Shown: positions 1 through 10,637 of the stretch, piece after piece
Layout: every line of letters starts with the position of its first letter
Position numbering within the stretch: position 1 is the first letter of the stretch
IMG/VR virus record: IMGVR_UViG_2529292908_000010
Span: 1-10,637 of that record
DNA from: a virus
Taxonomy: Duplodnaviria; Heunggongvirae; Uroviricota; Caudoviricetes
Length of the DNA: 10,637 bases
Reading direction: 5' to 3' (one strand)
The notes under the pieces: generated by a model
Told to the model about the DNA's origin: nothing
What the model saw: the letters and a program-made list of their open reading frames with translations, nothing else
Database searches by the model: none
Program-made: the position numbers and the translations under genes

Positions 1-1119
1 TCAAATAACCAACTTAACCCATTCCTGACCTCGAGTATCGTTATAGCGATCGGTGGTAGCCTGGACTTTATGTCCCAGTAATGTTTTTGTATCGACACCC
101 TGTGCGCGGTACAACCGTTCTGACAGGGAGCGTTGTTCATGAAATGTTGGCGGTGTTTTTCCTGCTGGTGGAATTATTCCAGCCAGATCTCGCGCTTTGG
201 CGAAGTAATCGCTCAGGTTGTCTTTACTCATCGGTTTTGGTTGTTTCTGGTGCCTACTATGGATTAGGTATGGACTCAACATTCTGTCCCTGCATCCATC
301 AATAACTTCTTTTAACGATACCCCAATTTCATCGCATCGTAGCCTAAGAGGTAAGGCCAGACGCATTCCGGTTTTTCCTTGGGTTATATGTAGATGTCCA
401 TTCCATACATCTGAAAAACGCATGTGGCAAATGTCATCACGGCGCTGACCAGTAACAATCGCAAGAAGCATTGCGTTACGGATAAAGTGTTTTTCTGGCG
501 TTGCATTATAAATTTTTTGCCAGTCTTCCAGGGTGAGTCTGGATCTGGTCACTTTAGGGATCGGTTTACGGGTAGCCTCCGGAGGATTCCATCCAGGAGG
601 AACTTCTCCCGCATGCTGTGCTTCTTTATAAATATCAACCCATAATCCGCGATTTACTCTTGCTGTGCTGACCATGTCTTTATCCATCCACTCGTCCAGT
701 ATTAATGCAAAGTCTCTTACCTCCAGTTCTTTCAATGGGTGGTTTCCCAGGCGGGAAACCAGGTATGCAGCCATTCGCACTTTTTCTTTGTGGGTTGTAG
801 CTGCAATGTCTCCATTTTTCAGTCGCGAATCCTGTATTTTCAGATATCGATCAACCCATGCCTTTAATCTGATACCCCGACGTTTTGTTGCTGATGGACT
901 TTCATCAATTTTGCGCATGAAATATTCTGCTTCTGCTGCAGCTATTCGCTGATTGGCTGTTGCAGCGATTTTTTCTGCCTTGACTTTGTCTGTCCCAAGT
1001 CCGTGAAATTTTCCAGTCACAGGATTTTTATACTGGTAGTAAACCTTGCCAGTTCTGCGATCAAATTTTTCGTAAAGAGCTGCTACGTCAGTACTGTTTT
1101 TTCGTGGCCTCGGTGACAT
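1..1119 (-). CDS. int: Tyrosine site-specific recombinase, lambda Int family (prophage integrase)
   Basis: Complete 372-aa ORF, ATG at 1119-1117 and TAA at 3-1. Collinear with lambda Int from memory, including the HxxR box (TFHEQRSLSERLY) and C-terminal catalytic Tyr region (ATTDRYNDTRGQEW). First gene at the window edge, as at a prophage left end. Confidence 0.93.
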   Translation of the reverse strand: MSPRPRKNSTDVAALYEKFDRRTGKVYYQYKNPVTGKFHGLGTDKVKAEKIAATANQRIAAAEAEYFMRKIDESPSATKRRGIRLKAWVDRYLKIQDSRLKNGDIAATTHKEKVRMAAYLVSRLGNHPLKELEVRDFALILDEWMDKDMVSTARVNRGLWVDIYKEAQHAGEVPPGWNPPEATRKPIPKVTRSRLTLEDWQKIYNATPEKHFIRNAMLLAIVTGQRRDDICHMRFSDVWNGHLHITQGKTGMRLALPLRLRCDEIGVSLKEVIDGCRDRMLSPYLIHSRHQKQPKPMSKDNLSDYFAKARDLAGIIPPAGKTPPTFHEQRSLSERLYRAQGVDTKTLLGHKVQATTDRYNDTRGQEWVKLVI

Positions 1120-1357
1120 GGGTTAAAATCTCCTTCAGTGCGTCATCATCGCCAGTATGAATTTCCGGCGCAATTCCAGCTTCACCCGGTCCAACAAAGA
1201 CTGCGCGGCGATCTATTAGCCAGCGACCACGAATTTTTTGTGGTCTTGGTACGATGTATCCAAGTTTTCCGTATTTCACCAGGGTAGTGTTTGTTATTGG
1301 GAGACTGAACCGCTTAGGTTTCCACTCGTCGAGCGTAATCAGGTACTGTTCGCTCAT
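1088..1357 (-). CDS. xis: Excisionase (Xis-like)
   Basis: Small ORF directly upstream of int, overlapping its start by 32 nt as in lambda xis-int. N-terminus MSEQYLITLDEW resembles lambda Xis (MYLTLQEW...). ATG at 1357 has GGAG 8 nt upstream; the ORF track starts at an in-frame GTG at 1366, so the start is uncertain. Confidence 0.75.
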   Translation of the reverse strand: MSEQYLITLDEWKPKRFSLPITNTTLVKYGKLGYIVPRPQKIRGRWLIDRRAVFVGPGEAGIAPEIHTGDDDALKEILTHVTEATKKQY

Positions 1358-1418
1358 GACCATCACTCCGGAACGCGCCAGTTGCAGAATACCAACTACA
1401 ACCGGCGACGGTTGAACA

Positions 1419-3890
1419 TTAAAAATCAGCCTGACTCGGGATCAGTTTTTGCCAGATAACTGAAACGTATTTTGCCTGGTAACGGGCGTCATCAAGTGCA
1501 TTATGGCGCTCACCTTCGAATGGAATAGCCGTTCTGGCATCGAAGTCTATGGCTTTCCCCAGCTCAACGATTGTGCGTACATCGCGATCGTTGTAGTAAC
1601 GCCACGGGCAGGGGATCCCCTGCCGTTCGTATGAACGGCGCAAAATCGTGTTTTCGAAGTTGGCTCCATTTCCCCAGACCTGAACAAAAAATTCACCGGA
1701 GTTTTCGTCGATAAATTCCCGCAATTGTAACAGTGCATCATCTAACGGGATTTCATCGGTCATAATGGCAGACTGCGCTTCACGTGATTGCTTCAGCCAC
1801 CTTTTAATGACGTCACGATCAATGACTCCGCCAGCAGTTTCCAGATCGATAGTCTTACTAAATTCCGGTCCCATATCTCCGGTTTGCGGATCGAAAAATA
1901 TTGCATCTATTGAGATAATCGGGGCATCAGGATTTTTGCCCATTGTTTCAAGGTCAATCATCAGATGGTGCCACAACCTGCTGGTGGATGTGCTTTTACG
2001 ATGACCGTTCACCTTAATTAAGGGATTTGCTGTCTCGCCTATTTCATTATTGTCATTGGCATGTTGATCGCCTTCGGTGCACTCCTTGTTCGGGAGTCCG
2101 GCACTTTCTATTTCCTCTGGATCTTTTTCCCGGGCTTCATCCTGGCTTTCTTCGTTGAATGTCTCCTGGTAGGTTGCGTCACCCATCACTGCGCCACAAT
2201 CAGGGCAGTTACCACCACCAGTCTGATTGCATGCGGTACAAACTTTTTCCTCTTCCTGTTGCACGACTGGTTCAGGTTGTTTCGTTTCTGGCTCGTTTTG
2301 TAACGCATTTTGGCTGTTTTGTTCCGCTTTTTGGTCGTACTGTTCCGTTTCTGACTGGTTCTGGTGCACAGAATCGCGGGTTTCAATCCCCTTCACCCAT
2401 TTCGGATCATTCGGGTCGCTAATCCCTTCAACAAATTCACCACGTGATGCAGCGAGCAACTTATTAGCGTCAGGCTGGCTGATACTGGCTGCCTGCATAA
2501 TTTTGTTTACTTCGTCAGCGGTAACTTTTACCAGGTCTGGTTGTGCGGTCGTGTCAGATGCATCAGTATTTTGTTGTGAACCTGTGTATGTGCCGTTTTT
2601 GCGGGCAAAATATTCTTCTTTCGTGATTTCAGTTGCCCCGGCAGCCAGCGCCTTATCCAGACCAGAAAGTTTGTTTGCGCGACCGTATTTTTCGCCATCC
2701 TTGTCGGTGAAGAGGAAGTAGAACGGCCCCTCACGCTCTACAGATGGTTCGACTTCCACTTTGCATTCGGTTTTTTCGTTGTCCGGCATTGCCGTTTCCA
2801 CTGCATCAGCTTCTGGTACTGGCGACGGGAGAGTATTAGTTGTGCTCTGATTTGTTCCTTCATCTTCAAACACGCCCTTTGTAGTCAGGTATTCAGTGAT
2901 GTATTTGTTCAGCGCCACGGGATCTTTGTGAATGTCGATCGGACGTTCACGGACAAGGCCAAAAATAGTCTGACGGTCATAGCCAAGTGCTTCAGGCTGT
3001 TTGCGCATTGATGCCGAGATACGCTTCCAGTCTTCGCGGTCGTTGTCGATAACTTCATTTTTTGCCCAGCGATGGATGCTGCCGTCAATGTTTCCGGCAT
3101 CCACATCACCAGGCCAGAGAGCGTAGGCCAGTTCGTCATCCAGTGTTTTCCATGTCTGCTTGTATTCGCGATGAATGGCAGCAATGACCGGGCTGATTTT
3201 TCCTGTTGAATTTTCAGTGTGCTGTTGATTGGTTCTGGCGCGGGCGAGATCAACAACAGACGTGTATTTTCCTGTTTCCTTGCGTTCACCTTCGCGACGT
3301 TTTTTCCAGATGCGCATCTCTGCCTGAATTTCGGGCCATTTGGCACTAGGCTTACATTTATGCTTAACCCACCCGATGGCATGCAGCTTAAGCTCCGGAT
3401 ACATGGCGTTAACTTCTGGCATTTTCATCAACGCTTCAACGATATGTCCGTCGAATGTTGCCATGTCTTCCTGCAACAATTCCTGTGCGCTAATAACCAT
3501 ATCAACGGTGATGTTTTCACATGTGTCGAACTTAACCATGACAGCGTTCTGTACTTCAGGGGCCAGCTTGTCAAAAGTGACGTTCATCGGATCGGATTCA
3601 GTCTCAACCGGGACAAAGGAAGCAGACTCCTCATCCCAGCGGTTTTCCTGCATATATTCAGCATCCCATGAATCGAGGGCAGGGCGGGGTATGCCAGGTT
3701 TATCCTCGCAGACAATAAATTTATAAGCGCAGTCCTGAGCAGCCGGATAATGTTCCAGGAATTGCCAGTGAAATTTTGCTCGAGCACGGCGTTCGTCGCC
3801 AGCTTCAATGGCTGTGGCTACAGCCACAGCGCCTTCTTCCCTTGTTGCCAGTTCGTCAGGAATAGCGGCGCAAATAAAGACTTTACTCAT
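1419..3890 (-). CDS. Large early-left exonuclease (exodeoxyribonuclease VIII-like) with C-terminal DEDDh/DnaQ-like 3'-5' exonuclease domain and internal Cys4 zinc ribbon
   Basis: 823-aa ORF, ATG at 3890-3888, TAA at 1421-1419. C-terminal motifs MIDLETMG (Exo I), VWGNGANFEN (Exo II-like) and ERHNALDDARYQ (Exo III, H-x4-D). Central C-x2-C-x7-C-x2-C (CTACNQTGGGNCPDC) inside an acidic Q/E/N-rich stretch. Occupies the recE position upstream of xis-int. Family call is from motifs and memory, not a search. Confidence 0.85.
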   Translation of the reverse strand: MSKVFICAAIPDELATREEGAVAVATAIEAGDERRARAKFHWQFLEHYPAAQDCAYKFIVCEDKPGIPRPALDSWDAEYMQENRWDEESASFVPVETESDPMNVTFDKLAPEVQNAVMVKFDTCENITVDMVISAQELLQEDMATFDGHIVEALMKMPEVNAMYPELKLHAIGWVKHKCKPSAKWPEIQAEMRIWKKRREGERKETGKYTSVVDLARARTNQQHTENSTGKISPVIAAIHREYKQTWKTLDDELAYALWPGDVDAGNIDGSIHRWAKNEVIDNDREDWKRISASMRKQPEALGYDRQTIFGLVRERPIDIHKDPVALNKYITEYLTTKGVFEDEGTNQSTTNTLPSPVPEADAVETAMPDNEKTECKVEVEPSVEREGPFYFLFTDKDGEKYGRANKLSGLDKALAAGATEITKEEYFARKNGTYTGSQQNTDASDTTAQPDLVKVTADEVNKIMQAASISQPDANKLLAASRGEFVEGISDPNDPKWVKGIETRDSVHQNQSETEQYDQKAEQNSQNALQNEPETKQPEPVVQQEEEKVCTACNQTGGGNCPDCGAVMGDATYQETFNEESQDEAREKDPEEIESAGLPNKECTEGDQHANDNNEIGETANPLIKVNGHRKSTSTSRLWHHLMIDLETMGKNPDAPIISIDAIFFDPQTGDMGPEFSKTIDLETAGGVIDRDVIKRWLKQSREAQSAIMTDEIPLDDALLQLREFIDENSGEFFVQVWGNGANFENTILRRSYERQGIPCPWRYYNDRDVRTIVELGKAIDFDARTAIPFEGERHNALDDARYQAKYVSVIWQKLIPSQADF

Positions 3891-3985
3891 TTTGTTTTAA
3901 CCTCATTACAGATTTCAGGGTGAACGAATCCCTGCCATTGCTGGCATTTTTAATCCGTTGGTATGGCGTTAATATGGCTGGCGGG

Positions 3986-4174
3986 TTATCCAGCCGGTAT
4001 TGCGTTATTCAGGTTCAGCGATACTTTTTTTAACGGGAGGCATTCACCGGGGATTTTTTGTTCGTCCCTTACCTGAATGCAGGATGACTTACTGTCATAA
4101 ATTCCGGTAATCACATTTTGTGGCTCACCCGTTATAAGAAAAACGGTCATCACCAGTGCAAATGCTGAAGTCAC
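3986..4174 (-). CDS. Hypothetical small protein (62 aa), hydrophobic N-terminus
   Basis: ORF with GTG start at 4174-4172 overlapping the upstream stop (GTGA), GGAG 7 nt upstream. N-terminus MTSAFALVMTVFLITG is hydrophobic. No recognisable family; AT-rich context. Confidence 0.4.
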   Translation of the reverse strand: MTSAFALVMTVFLITGEPQNVITGIYDSKSSCIQVRDEQKIPGECLPLKKVSLNLNNAIPAG

Positions 4175-4359
4175 TGCTGTTCTCCGATAATACCAAGTTC
4201 AAGAAGGGCAATTCTGGAAAGTATGGAATTATCATTGAGAAGATAAGGTTCATATTTTCTCATCTTAATGGCATCTTCCGTAAACTCCCGGTTACTGAGC
4301 AGAACACCAATATCAAAACAACCTTCAGACGTATTAACGTTTGGTAATAACGTTTCCAT
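4171..4359 (-). CDS. Hypothetical small protein (62 aa)
   Basis: ATG at 4359-4357 with GAGGA 7 nt upstream; stop overlaps the start of the next ORF. No recognisable family. Confidence 0.45.
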   Translation of the reverse strand: METLLPNVNTSEGCFDIGVLLSNREFTEDAIKMRKYEPYLLNDNSILSRIALLELGIIGEQQ

Positions 4360-4376
4360 TATCGCGTCCTCAACAA

Positions 4377-4537
4377 TGAATTTTGTGATGCGGTGCCTGG
4401 TGCCTCCAGGTGACGTTAACCAGTTAACAATTAACGCCGGAATACAGAAGGATGCCCGTTACGCCCCGTAAAAGACCACTTTACGGTTTTAACTGTTCCG
4501 CGTGCGCATAGCCGCATTCACCGCATCACAAAATTCA
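4377..4537. repeat. Perfect 19-bp inverted repeat pair flanking a 123-bp palindrome-rich segment
   Basis: TGAATTTTGTGATGCGGTG at 4377-4395 and its exact reverse complement CACCGCATCACAAAATTCA at 4519-4537. Interior holds further palindromes (CCTGG-tgcct-CCAGG at 4396-4410; GTTAAC-cag-TTAAC at 4415-4428). Confidence 0.7.
4466..4490 (+). terminator. Terminator-like hairpin followed by TTTT (plus strand)
   Basis: CCGTAAA (4466-4472) pairs with TTTACGG (4480-4486), 7-nt loop, then TTTT at 4487-4490. Stem is AU-rich and no confident plus-strand gene lies upstream. Confidence 0.25.
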
Positions 4538-4835
4538 CTTTAAAAAGGGTGGCAGAGCAGTCACGGAGTAGAACTGATGCCACCAAATACTACACATGGG
4601 TATTGTGGCGGGGCTGTCACTTAAGCGTATGGTCAACCTGACGACCCGGTGCATTTTCTGGAGCAATGGAGGAAGCCCCAGCCATACTTACCGCCGCGCC
4701 ATTTCGCGGACTGCCACAACCGGAAGTGCACGGTCGAAGAAATTTAACGACAAGCCTTATATGCAAAGGAATCTCGCCGTGCGCTTTCGTGTTGTGTGCC
4801 TGCTTTTAACCACGTCAGGCGAGGTGGTTTCCGTC

Positions 4836-4864
4836 ATTCCCCAATAACAGGAAATCTGTATAAT
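4836..4864 (+). promoter_or_regulatory. Putative sigma70 promoter for the rightward membrane-protein gene
   Basis: Perfect -10 TATAAT at 4859-4864 preceded directly by TG; -35 is poor (ATTCCC/TTCCCC). Lies 35 bp upstream of the SD-ATG at 4898. Confidence 0.3.
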
Positions 4865-4897
4865 CTGGATATCCCCAACAACAGGAAGGTGTTTTAT

Positions 4898-5056
4898 ATG
4901 GTGGTTCAAAAGAATTGTTCAGGTACTGGTAAGCCTGCGGACAGGGCGGACATTCCGAATACCAGGAAACATATACCTGAGAAAAACATTCGACCAAAAC
5001 CATCTCCAGCTCCTTCAGAGGAGAGGGGGAACAGCAACAATCAAACAAGCAGGTGA
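4898..5056 (+). CDS. Hypothetical small hydrophilic protein (52 aa)
   Basis: ATG at 4898 with AGGAAGG 8 nt upstream; stop 7 nt before the next ATG. Pro-rich, low-complexity product and not in the track under this start, so it may instead be a leader region. Confidence 0.3.
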   Translation: MVVQKNCSGTGKPADRADIPNTRKHIPEKNIRPKPSPAPSEERGNSNNQTSR

Positions 5057-5062
5057 TGATAT

Positions 5063-5509
5063 ATGGACCGGGATGATATTCTTGACAGGGTTTTATATGG
5101 TTATTTTCTTGAACAACTATTCTCTGTAGCGACTGGTCGTCTCGATAAACTTTTCTCAGTGGTGAGTATTATCCTCGGTTCATCTGTCATTGGTGGATTT
5201 ATTCCTGAAGTTTCTGGAGTTCTCATCGTTGTGATAGCAACCGTTCAAACGATTTACGGATTCGGACAAAAGTCAGGTAACGCAATGAGAAAATCCGCAG
5301 AATATCTGCAGCTTTATGATGATGCAGAAAAATATTCCGATTCGGAATTGAAAATGCAGTTAAAGCTCCTGGAAAAAACAGATGATAATATTTGGTCGTC
5401 GCTTAAAGATATCGCAATCTTAAAAACCCAGATCAAAATAGGAATCTCCGTAGAACAACAAGAGAAACTGTCTGCAAAATCCAAATTGATGCGATTCCTT
5501 TGTGGTTAG
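5063..5509 (+). CDS. Small membrane protein, putative superinfection-exclusion / abortive-infection protein (SieB-like by architecture and position)
   Basis: 148-aa ORF, ATG at 5063 with AGGTGA 6 nt upstream. Two predicted TM helices (LFSVVSIILGSSVIGGFI; VLIVVIATVQTIYGF) then a charged helical tail. Rightward gene set among leftward early genes, as sieB is in lambda/Rac. Confidence 0.7.
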   Translation: MDRDDILDRVLYGYFLEQLFSVATGRLDKLFSVVSIILGSSVIGGFIPEVSGVLIVVIATVQTIYGFGQKSGNAMRKSAEYLQLYDDAEKYSDSELKMQLKLLEKTDDNIWSSLKDIAILKTQIKIGISVEQQEKLSAKSKLMRFLCG

Positions 5510-5607
5510 GAATACCCAGATTGTTAAAGAGCATGCCGAATGCTTACCCGTGTCCGGCGAACGTATTCCACTTCGCCTGTGGAGAACTCTTTAATTACTA
5601 ACCTTCA

Positions 5608-5760
5608 TCAGTCAGAGTTTCTTGCTAACCAGCGATGCGCGCCAGCTTCAGTTTTAAACGTTTTGCTTCTGGTATACGTCATCGCGGTAAACGTGCCGTC
5701 CTGGTTAGGGAACACACCACATACCAGAGATTCGTTGTTGCCAAGATTGAGCATATCCAT
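5608..5760 (-). CDS. Small hypothetical prophage protein (50 aa), YdaF/YdfA-like by size and position
   Basis: ATG at 5760-5758 with GAGG 5 nt upstream, TGA at 5610-5608. Product MDMLNLGNNESLVCGVFPNQDGTFTAMTYTRSKTFKTEAGAHRWLARNSD is not compositionally biased. Below the 60-aa track cutoff; translated by hand. Confidence 0.45.
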   Translation of the reverse strand: MDMLNLGNNESLVCGVFPNQDGTFTAMTYTRSKTFKTEAGAHRWLARNSD

Positions 5761-5933
5761 GTTGACCTCATTTCCCCTTAACGCCGGGTCGCGGAACTAA
5801 AAACCTGCTGCGCTGTTATACAAAGTGTTCCCGCCGTCATGTTCATACGCCTCGGGCTGGCTACTTAACCCCTGACCACTGCCGGGTAACTCTAGGTATT
5901 GCCTGGCGTTCTGTGGGACGGGGTGGTGAAGTT

Positions 5934-5963
5934 AGTTTATACAAAAATAAACTAAACAGCCAA
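5934..5963 (-). promoter_or_regulatory. Putative leftward early promoter (pL-like) with overlapping 20-bp operator-like palindrome
   Basis: Minus strand: -35 TTGGCT (5963-5958), 16-nt spacer, -10 TATAAA (5941-5936). Palindrome AGTTTA-N8-TAAACT at 5953-5934 overlaps the -10. Lies just downstream of the parE terminator. Confidence 0.4.
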
Positions 5964-5984
5964 TATGTAACTTAACGCTTTGGC

Positions 5985-6010
5985 GTAAATAACCCCCTTT
6001 TGAGAGGGGG
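5985..6010 (-). terminator. Rho-independent terminator of the repressor/toxin-antitoxin operon
   Basis: Minus strand: GC-rich stem CCCCCT/AGGGGG (6010-5993) followed by UUAUUUA (5992-5986), 16 nt after the parE stop. Confidence 0.55.
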
Positions 6011-6025
6011 CTTTGCTTCGGGGGA

Positions 6026-6313
6026 TTAAGGTGTTACAGGGAACTGTCGGCGGGCGTGAACTACGTTAACAATTTCAATGCCTGAAATTGTCACGCGGTA
6101 CAGTATTATGTAATTGGGGTGGGCTACAATTTCACGTAAACCGGGTACTCTGTCGCTTGGCGGGTATAAATACGGATGCTCAGATAATGGCAGAACGCAA
6201 GTCCTTAAGCGTTTCCACAAACGTTCTGCCGCATCTATGTCAAAACGTGCAATATAGCTGGTTATCTCATCTAGGTCGGTATCTGCGCTTTCAAGCCATA
6301 ACACGGGTAACAT
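6026..6313 (-). CDS. parE: ParE/RelE-superfamily toxin (ParE2-like)
   Basis: 95-aa ORF with RelE/ParE hallmarks (REIVAHPNYIILYRV...IEIVNVVHARR). ATG at 6313-6311 abuts the stop of the upstream antitoxin gene (TAA-ATG). Confidence 0.9.
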   Translation of the reverse strand: MLPVLWLESADTDLDEITSYIARFDIDAAERLWKRLRTCVLPLSEHPYLYPPSDRVPGLREIVAHPNYIILYRVTISGIEIVNVVHARRQFPVTP

Positions 6314-6505
6314 TTACTGTTTGCTCCGTTCCTTGCGCATTTTTGCAAAGCGTTCTGCCATTCTGCGTTCAACTTCGTCATGAGGAATAGCTGGACGTGG
6401 ATCAGCTAGGCTCGCGGCCACTTTTGCACGCAACCATTGGTTATAACTATTTTCTTGCTCGACGGTTTCAAATTCAGAAACCATTGGTGAAAGGGCTGTG
6501 TTCAT
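6314..6505 (-). CDS. paaA2: PaaA2-like antitoxin
   Basis: 63-aa ORF directly upstream of and coupled to parE, GAGG 6 nt before the ATG. Sequence (MNTALSPMVSEFETVEQENSYNQWLRAKVAASLADPRPAIPHDEVERRMAERFAKMRKERSKQ) matches my recollection of E. coli O157 PaaA2; recollection unverified. Confidence 0.8.
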   Translation of the reverse strand: MNTALSPMVSEFETVEQENSYNQWLRAKVAASLADPRPAIPHDEVERRMAERFAKMRKERSKQ

Positions 6506-6542
6506 ATGGTGAACCTCATCTTGTAAGTGCTGGTAAATCGGC

Positions 6543-6716
6543 CTAGGTAACTTTCTGTTGTGCTTCTAGCCACCTTGCAACTATACGATCCATTGCCTCT
6601 TTTTTCTCCTTCATATCTTTTAGCATTTGCTGTTGATCTTCCTCTGGAAATGCGTCAAATGTTTGAAGTAGTTCTTTTTGCCTAGGGGTTATTTTTAATA
6701 TACCCTGTGCCCTGTC
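6543..6716 (-). other. -1-frame continuation encoding the C-terminal domain of the PaaR2-like regulator
   Basis: From the slippery site the -1 frame reads DRAQGILKITPRQKELLQTFDAFPEEDQQQMLKDMKEKKEAMDRIVARWLEAQQKVT*, homologous to the C-terminal domain of the 6925..7338 gene. This frame opens only 4 codons before the slip site and has no usable start. Confidence 0.5.
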
Positions 6717-6937
6717 TTTTTTTCTTCATTTAATGGTAAGAAAAACCAATACTGAGGAAATCCCGTTACTTCAGATAGTTTATCTAGATTAGCTGCTGTA
6801 GGGCTTGAGATACCACAAACCCACCTTTGGACGGATTGTTGAGCAATACCAATTCTGCGCGCAAGTTCTGCTTGACTCCAGCCTTTTGTCAATAGAAGCA
6901 TCTTAATTCTAAGAGCACTAATTTCTAGTACGCCCAT
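6695..6937 (-). CDS. XRE-family HTH regulator, N-terminal part of a PaaR2-like regulator
   Basis: 80-aa ORF with classic XRE motif (LTKGWSQAELARRIGIAQQSVQRWVCG), first gene upstream of the antitoxin. Ends 5 codons after an A_AAA_AAG heptamer, beyond which the conserved C-terminal domain continues in the -1 frame. Confidence 0.75.
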   Translation of the reverse strand: MGVLEISALRIKMLLLTKGWSQAELARRIGIAQQSVQRWVCGISSPTAANLDKLSEVTGFPQYWFFLPLNEEKKTGHRVY

Positions 6938-7338
6938 TTGATATCTCTTGTTTTAGTATGTCTCTCGTCAGGCTCGGCGACCTTGCTGCGCCAACCAACG
7001 TGCAACAAGATCTTCCATTGCCTCTTTTTGTTTCTTAGTTCTTTTATGATCTCCTGCTGCTCATTATCAGGAAATGCACTAAATATTTGTAGCAATTCCA
7101 ATTGGTTAGGGGTTAATGCTATAGGTCTTGATGGCGGAGCTCCTGTTATGTCTTCTGGCTCAATATCAAGATAACCCCCTGGCATCCCATATGTTTGTTC
7201 AATACGTCTAGCCGCCTTTTCGCCAAACGTAGCTTTACCGCTCATTAATTGAGATAAGTAACTTTTCTCTTTAGGTGGCAAAGTCCTGTCTTTGAACCAC
7301 TCTTTGAGGCGTAAACGCCGAATCTCTTTTGTTTCCAT
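6925..7338 (-). CDS. Repressor-position HTH regulator (cI/RacR positional analogue), paralogous to the PaaR2-like regulator
   Basis: 137-aa ORF from ATG 7338 (track starts at GTG 7344), divergent from the Cro-like gene. N-terminal phage-repressor-like HTH (SYLSQLMSGKATFGEKAARRIEQTYGMPGGYLD); C-terminal domain (TPNQLELLQIFSAFPDNEQQEIIKELRNKK) homologous to the 6543..6716 segment. No SD, consistent with leaderless translation. Confidence 0.8.
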   Translation of the reverse strand: METKEIRRLRLKEWFKDRTLPPKEKSYLSQLMSGKATFGEKAARRIEQTYGMPGGYLDIEPEDITGAPPSRPIALTPNQLELLQIFSAFPDNEQQEIIKELRNKKRQWKILLHVGWRSKVAEPDERHTKTRDIKWAY

Positions 7339-7344
7339 ATACAC

Positions 7345-7373
7345 ATTATCTTTAGTAATTGCAAAATAAGCAA
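7345..7373 (-). promoter_or_regulatory. Putative pRM-like promoter giving a leaderless repressor mRNA
   Basis: Minus strand: -35 TTGCTT (7373-7368), 17-nt spacer, -10 GATAAT (7350-7345), placing the start site at or next to the A of the ATG at 7338. Motif-based only. Confidence 0.35.
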
Positions 7374-7377
7374 ATGC

Positions 7378-7407
7378 TTGACTAGTTTGTTTAGTTGTGT
7401 ATAAACT
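7378..7407 (+). promoter_or_regulatory. Putative pR-like promoter with overlapping 20-bp operator-like palindrome
   Basis: -35 TTGACT (7378-7383), 16-nt spacer, -10 TATAAA (7400-7405). Palindrome TGTTTA-N8-TAAACT at 7388-7407 overlaps the -10, 16/20 identical to the one at 5934-5953. Confidence 0.5.
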
Positions 7408-7439
7408 TTATGTGTTCTAAATGTGCAGAGATAAAAGTT

Positions 7440-7721
7440 ATGACGTTAAAGGAATTCATCAAATCATTAAAAACTGGAGAAGCCAAAAAATTTGCGGCCA
7501 ACCTTGGTGTGTCTCCGTCCTTCTTATCCCAAATGGCATCTGGAAATTCACCTGTGTCTCCTGTTCGTGCGTTGATGATAGAAGCTGAAACAGGAGGACA
7601 TGTTACAAGACGAGAGTTGAGGCCTAATGACTGGGAGCTTATATGGCCTGAATACACTGGAAGCACGCCTCCTTCACGTCACAAATATGAACTTAACTCC
7701 AAAAAGCTGATGGGGGGGTGA
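7440..7721 (+). CDS. Cro-like HTH protein (YdaS-type)
   Basis: 93 aa from ATG 7440 (upstream in-frame ATGs fall inside the promoter). Cro/YdaS-like motif KKFAANLGVSPSFLSQMASGNSPVSPVRALMIEAETGGHVTRRELRPNDWELIWPEY. Divergent from the repressor gene. Confidence 0.8.
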   Translation: MTLKEFIKSLKTGEAKKFAANLGVSPSFLSQMASGNSPVSPVRALMIEAETGGHVTRRELRPNDWELIWPEYTGSTPPSRHKYELNSKKLMGG

Positions 7722-7724
7722 TTC

Positions 7725-8162
7725 ATGAAAATCAAGCATGAGCACATCCGTATGGCGATGAATGCGTGGCTGCTTTATCCGAGAGTGGGGCGCAAAAAAA
7801 TCGCTGATGATATAGCAACAGCATATTTTGAGCTTGAAATGACTTATCCACCAATGCATGACACCTCTACGACAGAGGGTATTGGATTGAACATACAAAA
7901 TATTTTTCGCTGGCTTGAAAAGGATACGCCTGATGCTGTTGAAAAAATTCAGGCACTAATTCCGGCGATCCTGACTGTTCTTCCGCGTGAACTGCGTTAT
8001 CACCTCAGTATTTTTGACACTGTTGAGCGCCGTGCATTACTGGCGGCGCAGGAAGCGTTGAGCACGGCAATTGATGCACATGATGATGCAGTCCAGGCCG
8101 TTTACCGGAAAGCGTATTTCAGCGACGGCGGGTCATCCGGCGAGTCTGTTGTGGTGCATTGA
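7725..8162 (+). CDS. YdaT-family protein (CII-position regulator)
   Basis: 145-aa ORF starting 3 nt after the Cro-like stop, G-rich SD upstream. Size, sequence character and position match Rac YdaT-type proteins. Confidence 0.85.
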   Translation: MKIKHEHIRMAMNAWLLYPRVGRKKIADDIATAYFELEMTYPPMHDTSTTEGIGLNIQNIFRWLEKDTPDAVEKIQALIPAILTVLPRELRYHLSIFDTVERRALLAAQEALSTAIDAHDDAVQAVYRKAYFSDGGSSGESVVVH

Positions 8163-8248
8163 TATTTATGCCAGACCCCTGCTGATTCTGTTGATTGGGG
8201 AATCACAGAATATCACCAGAGGATGGTTCGTCACAAGATGAGGCAATT

Positions 8249-9262
8249 ATGGCCGCATTACCATACATGCAACTGTACATAGCTGATTACCTGGCTGACA
8301 CCATGCATTTGTCTGCAGAGGAGCACGGCGCGTATTTGTTGCTGATGTTTAATTACTGGCAAACAGGGAAACCAATACCTAAAAACAGGCTGGCAAAAAT
8401 TGCCCGTCTGACTAACGAGCGATGGGCTGATGTTGAACCATCCTTGCGGGAGTTTTTTTGCGATAACGGCGATGAATGGGTGCATCTTCGGATTGAGGAA
8501 GATCTGGCATCAGTCAGGGAAAAATTAACCAAAAAATCAGCCGCCGGAAAAGCATCTGTTCAGGCCAGAAGAAGCAGAAAGGAAGCATATGTTCAAACAA
8601 AACAAGAGAGAGATTTAACAGGTGTTCAAACAAATGTTGGTGTTGTGTTTGAACATGACGCAAACACAAAAGCAACTAATAAAGATACAGATCTAAAAGA
8701 ATTAAACCCCACACATAACGTGCGTGAGCGCGAGAGTATTCCGACCAGTGAGTTGCATGGTGCGCCGTTGCAGACAGCCGAACCTGAATACCTGGACGGC
8801 CTGAGCGAACCGATCGGGAAATTTTCGATGACCACTGTCTGGCAGCCGTCGCCGGATTTTCGACAACGGGCAGCAGTGTGGGGTATGGCTCTGCCTGAGC
8901 CGGAATTTACACCTGCTGAACTTGCCGCCTTCAGGGACTACTGGGCAGCTGAGGGGAAAGTTTTTACGCAGGTTCAGTGGGAGCAGAAATTCGCCCGTCA
9001 CGTAAATCACGTCAGGGCGCAGGTTAAACCAGTCAGCAAGGGGGTGCGTCATGCAGCAGCACCAGGTGGCACCGCATCACGGGCAGTTCGGGAAATTCGG
9101 GCAGCACGTGAGCAGTGGGAACGTGAAAACGGATTTGTCAGCGACGGAAACGGCGTGGAAGCTGTGGGAGCTCATGGGGGAGGTTTATTCAAACCGCTGG
9201 ACTCAGAAGAACGGGGCCGCACCTTCGAAGCTCTGGATTGCCCAGATTGGCGCGATGACTGA
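8249..9262 (+). CDS. Replication initiation protein (lambda O positional analogue; YdaU/DUF1376-like N-terminal domain)
   Basis: ATG at 8249 with GAGG 5 nt upstream (track starts at TTG 8195). N-terminal domain YMQLYIADYLADTMHLSAEEHGAYLLLMFNYWQTG is YdaU/DUF1376-like. Iteron-like repeats sit in the interdomain linker. The last ~70 codons overlap the P-like ORF and are low-complexity, so the true 3' end is uncertain. Confidence 0.8.
   Translation: MAALPYMQLYIADYLADTMHLSAEEHGAYLLLMFNYWQTGKPIPKNRLAKIARLTNERWADVEPSLREFFCDNGDEWVHLRIEEDLASVREKLTKKSAAGKASVQARRSRKEAYVQTKQERDLTGVQTNVGVVFEHDANTKATNKDTDLKELNPTHNVRERESIPTSELHGAPLQTAEPEYLDGLSEPIGKFSMTTVWQPSPDFRQRAAVWGMALPEPEFTPAELAAFRDYWAAEGKVFTQVQWEQKFARHVNHVRAQVKPVSKGVRHAAAPGGTASRAVREIRAAREQWERENGFVSDGNGVEAVGAHGGGLFKPLDSEERGRTFEALDCPDWRDD
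8590..8655. repeat. Iteron-like repeats (candidate replication origin) inside the O-like gene
   Basis: TGTTCAAACAAA at 8590-8601 and 8623-8634 (direct), TGTTTGAACA at 8646-8655 (inverted copy of the 10-mer core), followed by an A-rich stretch at 8661-8700. Confidence 0.4.
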
Positions 9263-9716
9263 ACAGCAAATCAGGCTGGTCTGCCGTCAGTGCATGGACC
9301 GCTGCCGGGCGGGTGAAACGTGGCCCCCGGACCTGGCTGAGTTTGTTGCGCTGATTTCGGAGAGTGGGGCAAATCCATTTGGTCTTACGGTGGATGCCGT
9401 GATGGAAGAGTACCGGCGCTGGCGCAATGAATCCTGGCGGTACGACGGGAGTGATAAATACCCGTGGCCACAGCCTGTGCTGTACCACATTTGCCTCGAG
9501 ATGCGCACCAGAGGGATTGAACGTCAGATGACTGAAAGTGAGCTGAAACGACTTGCAGAACGACTGTTGACCAAATGGGCAAAGAATGTTGGTAACGGCA
9601 TGAGTGTTCCGCCAGTGCGACGACAACTGGAAGGGCCAAAACACCCGCCAGGGCCAACGCCAATTGAGTTACTGAAACAGGAATATGAGCGCCGGAAAGC
9701 GGCTGGTTTTGTCTGA
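9051..9716 (+). CDS. Lambda P-like replication protein (helicase loader)
   Basis: 221-aa ORF, ATG at 9051 with AGGGGG SD. Collinear with lambda P from memory (WPPDLAEFVAL vs PSPGQFVAWC; YPWPQPVLYH...ELKRLAERLL vs YPWKSNAHYW...ELRRKAADEL). Start uncertain; internal ATG at 9174 is possible. Confidence 0.8.
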   Translation: MQQHQVAPHHGQFGKFGQHVSSGNVKTDLSATETAWKLWELMGEVYSNRWTQKNGAAPSKLWIAQIGAMTEQQIRLVCRQCMDRCRAGETWPPDLAEFVALISESGANPFGLTVDAVMEEYRRWRNESWRYDGSDKYPWPQPVLYHICLEMRTRGIERQMTESELKRLAERLLTKWAKNVGNGMSVPPVRRQLEGPKHPPGPTPIELLKQEYERRKAAGFV

Positions 9717-9749
9717 ATTTGAGAAATGATTTTGTCGGAGGAAATTTTA

Positions 9750-10463
9750 ATGGAAACCGTTTTTGACGCACTGAAAGCACTGAAAAGAGCCTCTTCACAG
9801 GAGGTGTCGGCCCGCCTTGGAATCAGCCGCGAAGATGCTGTCAACGAGCTGTGGAAGCTGAAACGCCGTGGTGAAGCAGATAACAAGGGGTCGATGTGGT
9901 GGCTGACGATTGAGGCAACTGAAATGGTCACAAAAACCACTGCGGAGATGCTGATTAACTCAATTGAACAGCATGGTCCTCAGTCGGCTGACGAACTGGC
10001 GTTAATGTTCGGGATTACCTCCCGCCGGGCGAATTCAACGCTGGCAATGGCAATAAGCAAAGGTCGTCTGATTCGAGTAAATCAGAACGGTAAATTTCGT
10101 TACTGCCTGTCGGGCGATAATTTACCAGCAGAGCCGAAAGCTGCATCGGTAACGGAAACTGCTGGTAAAGCCTTTCCTCAGACAGCAGGTGTTGCGTTAC
10201 CAGTCCGGGAAGCGGAAACACAGGAAGAAATTAAAACTGAAAGTGTGGCGGTCACAGTGCAGTCACAGCCGTCGTTCACCAGAAAGCATCCGGATAGTCT
10301 GATTTTACCATCGCTGCATGTGGCTAACCGCGAACTGCGCCGGGCAAAAGGTCAGGTTCAGAAGTGGGAGCGAGTCTGTGCTGCGCTGCGTGAGCTGAAC
10401 AAGCACCAGGATATTGTTCGACAGATTGTCGATTCCTCCAGTCGTATTGTGTCGGAAAAGTGA
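9750..10463 (+). CDS. Hypothetical protein with two winged-helix-like segments
   Basis: 237 aa from ATG 9750 with GGAGG 8 nt upstream (track start 9726 has no SD). Two HTH-like segments ([28 protein letters not shown]; [32 protein letters not shown]). Sits directly after the P-like gene. Confidence 0.75.
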
Positions 10464-10478
10464 TTGCCGGAGGTACTT

Positions 10479-10637
10479 ATGGCAAGAGTATTTACACAGG
10501 AAGAGCGGGAAGAAGTGAAGGCGCGCATTGTGGAATTCGTGCGCCTGAGCGGACGAGAAACTTTTCGACAACTGGCAGATAAAACGGGTGTCAGTAAGAC
10601 CGCTATTCGTCGTTTACCCAATCAAAAGCAGGGGTGA
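10479..10637 (+). CDS. Small hypothetical protein (52 aa) with HTH-like segment
   Basis: ATG at 10479 with GGAGG 7 nt upstream; TGA at 10635-10637 is the last codon of the window. Product MARVFTQEEREEVKARIVEFVRLSGRETFRQLADKTGVSKTAIRRLPNQKQG. Below the track cutoff; translated by hand. Confidence 0.5.
   Translation: MARVFTQEEREEVKARIVEFVRLSGRETFRQLADKTGVSKTAIRRLPNQKQG

Follow-up and report, generated by a model that had tools for sequence, protein, structure and literature searches.

In the Qin prophage of Escherichia coli K-12, the genes follow one another in the order ydfA-ydfB-ydfC-dicF-dicB-ydfD-ydfE(pseudo)-intQ, where ydfD overlaps dicB by 4 nt. The Qin operon is repressed by DicA, and this repression is relieved by the antirepressor Rem, by spontaneous switching or by some stresses, while RNase III and RNase E together excise the small RNA DicF from the polycistronic transcript (PMC10448788). 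The DicB protein of K-12 binds MinC, and ZipA draws the resulting complex to the septal ring, where FtsZ rings are depolymerised and filamentation follows. Through MinC, DicB also inhibits ManYZ, leading to an approximately 100-fold resistance to lambda-type phages that inject via ManYZ and to a block of growth on mannose (PMC6832061). Overproduction of K-12 YdfD causes lysis, which is prevented by co-expression of DicB or SulA (PMC8835842), implying that lysis needs active division. YdfD was further reported to bind IspG, and cells could be rescued by overexpression of ispG or by HMBPP (PMC8835842), a mechanism that has one study as its source. Lu et al. also found that cells survive induction of the K-12 YdfD variants deltaC1 and L63A, in which killing is abolished (PMC8835842). 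The original ydfD paper is that of Masuda et al. (2016), whose results are given here as summarised by Lu et al. (2022) (PMC8835842).

Here, we analysed a window of 10,637 nt from a tailed phage (Caudoviricetes; positions 1 to 10,637 of the IMG/VR record IMGVR_UViG_2529292908_000010), and we conclude that two small open reading frames on its minus strand are very probably dicB and ydfD from an early-left operon of the dicBF type, carried by a lambdoid E. coli prophage of the Qin/Rac-like, ompW-integrated type. The proposed identity of the pair is based on family membership, synteny, coupling, selection and conservation, and its predicted function is drawn from the K-12 homologues. The features of the locus, with the evidence for each, are as follows.

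1419..3890, minus strand: gene of an 823-aa exonuclease, the intact counterpart of the Qin pseudogene ydfE (phrog_2082, Rv2179c-like domain, synteny)
3986..4174, minus strand: ydfD-like gene, GTG start, 62 aa (open reading frame listing and PF07358 match)
4171..4359, minus strand: dicB, ATG start, 62 aa (open reading frame listing and family matches)
4360..4546, minus strand: dicF-dicB spacer and dicB leader with Shine-Dalgarno site GAGGA (Qin alignment, sliding identity)
4547..4598, minus strand: gene of the small RNA DicF, upstream member of the same operon as dicB (RF00039)
4599..4800, minus strand: long untranslated leader 5' of dicF, homologue of the ydfC-dicF spacer of Qin (K-12 alignment)
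5608..5760, minus strand: ydfA-like DUF1391 gene, promoter-proximal in the dicBF-type operon (PF07151, E 3.6e-29)

Judged by these assignments, the gene order ydfA-like ... dicF - dicB - ydfD-like - exonuclease - xis - int agrees with that of Qin, and colinearity with the Qin DNA extends from the dicF leader through the start of the exonuclease gene. The latter begins 95 nt downstream of the ydfD-like gene and is followed by genes for an excisionase and a lambda-type integrase; in contrast to Qin, all three of these genes are intact in the window. The window also differs from Qin in carrying an AT-rich 148-aa gene on the opposite strand in place of ydfB and ydfC.

A sequence-only reading of this DNA had described two 62-aa frames on the early-left strand, each with a Shine-Dalgarno site and overlapping by GTGA, and both the open reading frame listing and inspection of the minus strand bear this out. 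GAGGA ends 8 nt before the ATG of dicB, GGAG lies 7 nt before the GTG of the ydfD-like gene, and at the junction, CAGCAGTGACT, the TGA stop of dicB overlaps the GTG start as GTGA. This 4-nt overlap is kept in all alleles compared, as GTGA in the window and as ATGA in K-12 and two other alleles, the ATGA at this position supporting GTG as the start of the ydfD-like gene. The arrangement indicates that dicB and the ydfD-like gene are translationally coupled. Since the window contains 119 open reading frames of at least 30 aa, a frame of 62 aa is by itself no evidence of a gene; it is the family matches, purifying selection and conserved adjacency of the pair that identify both frames as genes.

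The upstream frame matched Pfam PF05358 from end to end (E 3.7e-38, 129.5 bits vs a cut-off of 27, residues 1-62 on profile positions 1-62), NCBIfam NF049927 'cell division inhibition protein DicB' (111 bits vs a cut-off of 100) and phrog_1251. The window protein conserves all 22 columns found to be invariant across 15 diverse DicB sequences, and 38 of its 62 residues (61%) are identical to those of K-12 DicB (b1575) in a BLASTP alignment. Like its Qin counterpart, the gene encodes 62 aa, lies about 175-190 nt downstream of dicF, overlaps ydfD immediately 3' and shares the leader and Shine-Dalgarno site. Residues 1-35 of the two proteins are near-identical (METLLPNVNTSEGCF.IGV..SN..FTEDAI..RK), whereas residues 36-62 belong to another allele (YEPYLLNDNSILSRIALLELGIIGEQQ vs QERELLNKICIVSMLARLRLMPKGCAQ), a division that is mirrored in the DNA, where identity to K-12 is 87% over codons 1-35 vs 48% over codons 36-62. 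In an alignment of 15 variants, the DicB C-terminus falls into two main types with intermediates between them. Because the last ~27 residues are far from those of K-12, MinC and ZipA are putative binding partners of the window protein. An AlphaFold2 model of DicB built from the family alignment was of low confidence (mean pLDDT 63, pTM 0.40). Sequence and profile searches of the PDB returned no solved relative of DicB or of the YdfD-like protein (best E 0.21 and 0.85), and neither protein matched a PADLOC defence model.

Sliding identity along the Qin alignment further localised the change of allele. Identity to K-12 is 95-100% from the 3' part of dicF to about codon 15 of dicB, including the ~100 nt of spacer and leader that adjoin dicB, declines in mid-dicB, and amounts to 35-55% over the dicB C-terminus and most of ydfD, with the exception of ~40 nt at the ydfD start that are 78% identical; the start region of the exonuclease gene is again 82-90% identical. 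A breakpoint of this kind within dicB is typical of an ordinary lambdoid mosaic junction. The pair had earlier been attributed to an AT-rich, horizontally acquired cassette, and the region 3986-4359 does have a lower GC content than the window (40.4% vs 47.1%), but the AT-richness is modest, the whole window is prophage and there is no discrete cassette. We rejected that proposal as a special explanation, as the GC content lies only at the 8.6th percentile of equal-sized windows, several other prophage stretches of the window are equally low, and the mosaic breakpoint falls within dicB.

The downstream frame belongs to the DUF1482 family. It matched Pfam PF07358 (E 8.6e-15, 54.8 bits vs a cut-off of 25, residues 4-54 on positions 1-52 of the 57-position profile) and, over its full length, phrog_1092 (E 1.2e-31), and 29 of its 62 residues (47%) are identical to those of the K-12 'lysis protein' YdfD (b1576). 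The proteins are of similar length (62 vs 63 aa) and have in common a hydrophobic N-terminus, two conserved cysteines, the QKIPG.C.P motif and a C-terminal IPAG; in both genomes, the start of the gene overlaps the dicB stop by 4 nt and an exonuclease gene comes next downstream. The hydrophobic N-terminus that had been ascribed to one of the two frames is that of the YdfD-like protein (MTSAFALVMTVFLITG), where Kyte-Doolittle means over 11 residues reach 2.0-2.8 across residues 1-17. The family-invariant F, L, T, V, G, two Cys, Pro and C-terminal PAG are all retained, and the two cysteines, C32 and C45, are invariant in 18 DUF1482 sequences, the K-12 and Klebsiella phage homologues included. A hydrophobic N-terminus of this kind together with an invariant cysteine pair would be compatible, too, with a protein of the membrane or periplasm. 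The AlphaFold2 model made from the family alignment was of low confidence (pLDDT 53.5, pTM 0.30), and 'DUF1482' used as a full-text literature term matched no paper.

Two differences from K-12 YdfD were found. The start codon is ATG in K-12 and GTG in the window, and the K-12 protein ends in ...IPAGL, whereas ...IPAG is the ending found in the window protein and in most others of its E. coli subfamily. The terminal leucine that K-12 YdfD reportedly requires for killing is thus absent from the window protein, which bears on activity and not on family membership, so that lysis by this allele is plausible but not certain. YdfD resembles the phiX174 E, Qbeta A2 and LysM proteins in being small, in its reported lysis through inhibition of an envelope-precursor enzyme and in its need for growing or dividing cells (PMC8835842). 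It is, however, unrelated to them by sequence and is encoded in an early operon of a tailed temperate phage; because such a phage has its own holin and endolysin elsewhere, YdfD is unlikely to serve as the lysis device of the phage.

In RefSeq E. coli chromosomes, loci 99.8% identical to the pair lie in a prophage adjoining ompW and are annotated as 'dicB' (cell division inhibition protein DicB) and 'DUF1482 family protein'. The earlier statement that neither frame belonged to a recognisable family is refuted by this annotation of both genes and by the matches to PF05358, NF049927 and PF07358, all of which exceed the curated thresholds. Conservation in related prophages, whose absence had been named as a refutation, was confirmed. 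Megablast with the 374-nt region found a match in 4,216 of 5,426 complete E. coli genomes, and the whole pair (at least 80% of the region) was present, at megablast sensitivity, in 1,016 of the 5,426. In the phage collection, DUF1482 lies directly downstream of DicB in each of the 20 records with DicB. Six Klebsiella phages carry DUF1482 with no detectable DicB, just upstream of an exonuclease VIII gene. In Klebsiella phages, as in ST16-OXA48phi5.1 (L003 2254-2692), two tiny overlapping hypothetical frames of 46 and 37 aa take the place of dicB before DUF1482 and directly after cI; without being related to DicB, they may substitute for it in function. Computed against three alleles ~9% divergent in DNA, dN/dS was 0.10-0.17 for dicB and 0.36-0.38 for the ydfD-like gene, indicating that both genes are under purifying selection.

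DicF, 190 nt upstream of dicB, matched the full Rfam model RF00039 (positions 1-52, E 5.6e-12, 62 bits vs a gathering score of 48). Over the first ~14 nt it departs from K-12 DicF, a divergence at the 5' end that could change which mRNAs are targeted. In the terminator-like stem, a C-G pair of K-12 is replaced in a compensatory manner by U-A (GGCGG/CCGCC to GGTGG/CCACC). Between dicF and dicB, a 7-bp hairpin at 4466-4486 (CCGTAAA...TTTACGG) is the product of 13 nt inserted relative to K-12; only on the plus strand is it followed by a T-run, so the hairpin would terminate transcription antisense to dicB and not that of the operon. A scan of the minus strand over 3800-7500 identified no sigma-70 consensus promoter, with fewer total matches than expected from shuffles. 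The promoter was therefore assigned through homology with the K-12 ydfA leader alone, the leader and start of the ydfA-like gene being conserved with K-12 ydfA. The route of transcription into dicB in this prophage is likewise inferred from homology.

Several neighbouring genes were characterised alongside the operon. The exonuclease (1419-3890, minus strand) matched phrog_2082 over its full length and the Pfam Rv2179c-like domain with E 1e-60. It is not a classical RecE, as its likeness to exodeoxyribonuclease VIII is confined to the middle part, and its C-terminal 180 aa form the Rv2179c-like 3'-5' exoribonuclease (DEDD-type) domain; no recT-like gene follows it, xis being next. The 148-aa frame in the place of ydfB and ydfC (5063-5509, plus strand, between the ydfA-like gene and dicF) has a GC content of about 38%, encodes two hydrophobic helices and matched phrog_6315, a family of unknown function. 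Its match to SLATT_4 was sub-threshold (15 vs 55 bits), and no PADLOC model matched. Its position is like that of a sieB-type exclusion gene, which makes it a candidate moron or defence gene. In the immunity region, a ParE-family toxin (6026-6313), a PaaA2-type antitoxin (6314-6505) and, upstream of them, an 80-aa HTH protein (6695-6937) are encoded on the minus strand at 6026-6937 in a layout like that of the three-gene paaR2-paaA2-parE2 module. This module is missing from the otherwise closest genome match, strain G1/2, which has racR there. A 139-aa frame (6925-7344, minus strand) occupies the repressor position, divergent from a YdaS-like/YdaT-like pair (7395-8162, plus strand), and matched neither Pfam nor PADLOC.

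Taken from the K-12 homologues, the function of the locus would run as follows. The prophage repressor would keep the operon silent. Upon derepression, DicF would be processed from the transcript and repress translation of ftsZ, and DicB would bind MinC, with ZipA recruiting the DicB-MinC complex to the septal ring, where FtsZ rings would be dismantled and filamentation would ensue. Also through MinC, DicB would inhibit ManYZ, blocking both the entry of lambda-like phage DNA and the uptake of mannose. The DUF1482 protein would be a small toxin that lyses dividing cells when overproduced, reportedly by binding and inhibiting IspG in the MEP isoprenoid pathway. The overlap of its GTG start with the dicB stop would tie translation of the ydfD-like gene to that of dicB, and because DicB-mediated division arrest would suppress lysis by YdfD, joint synthesis of the two proteins at a fixed ratio would favour arrest over lysis. 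We infer that the 4-nt overlap holds the YdfD-like protein below the level at which it would overcome the DicB arrest. The growth inhibition and filamentation that had been predicted for the pair are the phenotypes published for the K-12 homologues, and the view of the pair as host-modulating early genes stands, by K-12 homology, with DicB acting as a division inhibitor and in phage resistance; the accompanying description of the genes as being of unknown function does not.

Kil of phage lambda and KilR of the Rac prophage are small early-left division inhibitors that, as DicB, are encoded in a pL-type operon between the immunity region and exo/int. Both Kil/KilR and DicB block formation of the FtsZ ring, DicB doing so indirectly, via MinC and ZipA, and not directly on FtsZ/ZipA. 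To our knowledge, there is no sequence relationship between DicB and Kil/KilR. DicB is a functional counterpart of the Kil-type division inhibitors, with phage resistance in addition, and the earlier reading had already drawn the analogy with kil.

There is a small chance that the two proteins, although members of the dicB and ydfD families, form an allele pair that has diverged in function and acts on other host partners. The mosaic breakpoint within dicB and the divergent C-terminal third of the protein are compatible with such a change, as is the ending of the DUF1482 subfamily at PAG where K-12 YdfD needs L63. The target of the DUF1482 protein might then be, for example, membrane-bound or periplasmic instead of the cytoplasmic IspG, a possibility consistent with its hydrophobic N-terminus and with an invariant cysteine pair that is reportedly dispensable for IspG binding (PMC8835842). 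The pair could then be mainly a module for superinfection exclusion or abortive infection instead of one for division and lysis, in line with the anti-phage activity that K-12 DicB already has and with the Klebsiella phages that carry DUF1482 without DicB. However, every family-defining column is kept, intermediates connect the C-terminal variants of DicB, purifying selection and conserved coupling suggest the same joint function, and no PADLOC model matches either protein. We consider it improbable, in particular, that superinfection exclusion or abortive infection is served by a translationally coupled module of 'arrest plus conditional lysis' made up of the Leu-less DUF1482 protein and the C-terminally divergent DicB.

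It is far less credible still that one or both frames are decaying remnants of a cryptic prophage or chance frames, with DicF alone being of importance: many dicBF-carrying prophages are indeed defective, databases commonly contain truncated 'partial' entries for DicB and DUF1482, DUF1482 is truncated in one phage record and the ydfD-like gene of the window starts with GTG, but both frames are intact and of full length against the profiles, dN/dS is well below 1, the Shine-Dalgarno sites and the 4-nt overlap are conserved, the adjacent genes int, xis and that of the 823-aa exonuclease are intact in the window but not in Qin, and identical alleles occur in hundreds of genomes.

The assignment of the pair to dicB and ydfD places it in a cluster, dicF-dicB-ydfD, that is already known as a standard toxin cluster and is found in the majority of E. 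coli genomes, frequently as several copies; the window holds a divergent copy of it that is clearly recognisable and is annotated in RefSeq. The value of the window is thus comparative, as the operon is intact here, as are the exonuclease, xis and int genes, and both proteins are of a common non-K-12 allele. This allele would bear on which parts of DicB contact MinC and ZipA, and on the IspG model across the YdfD family.
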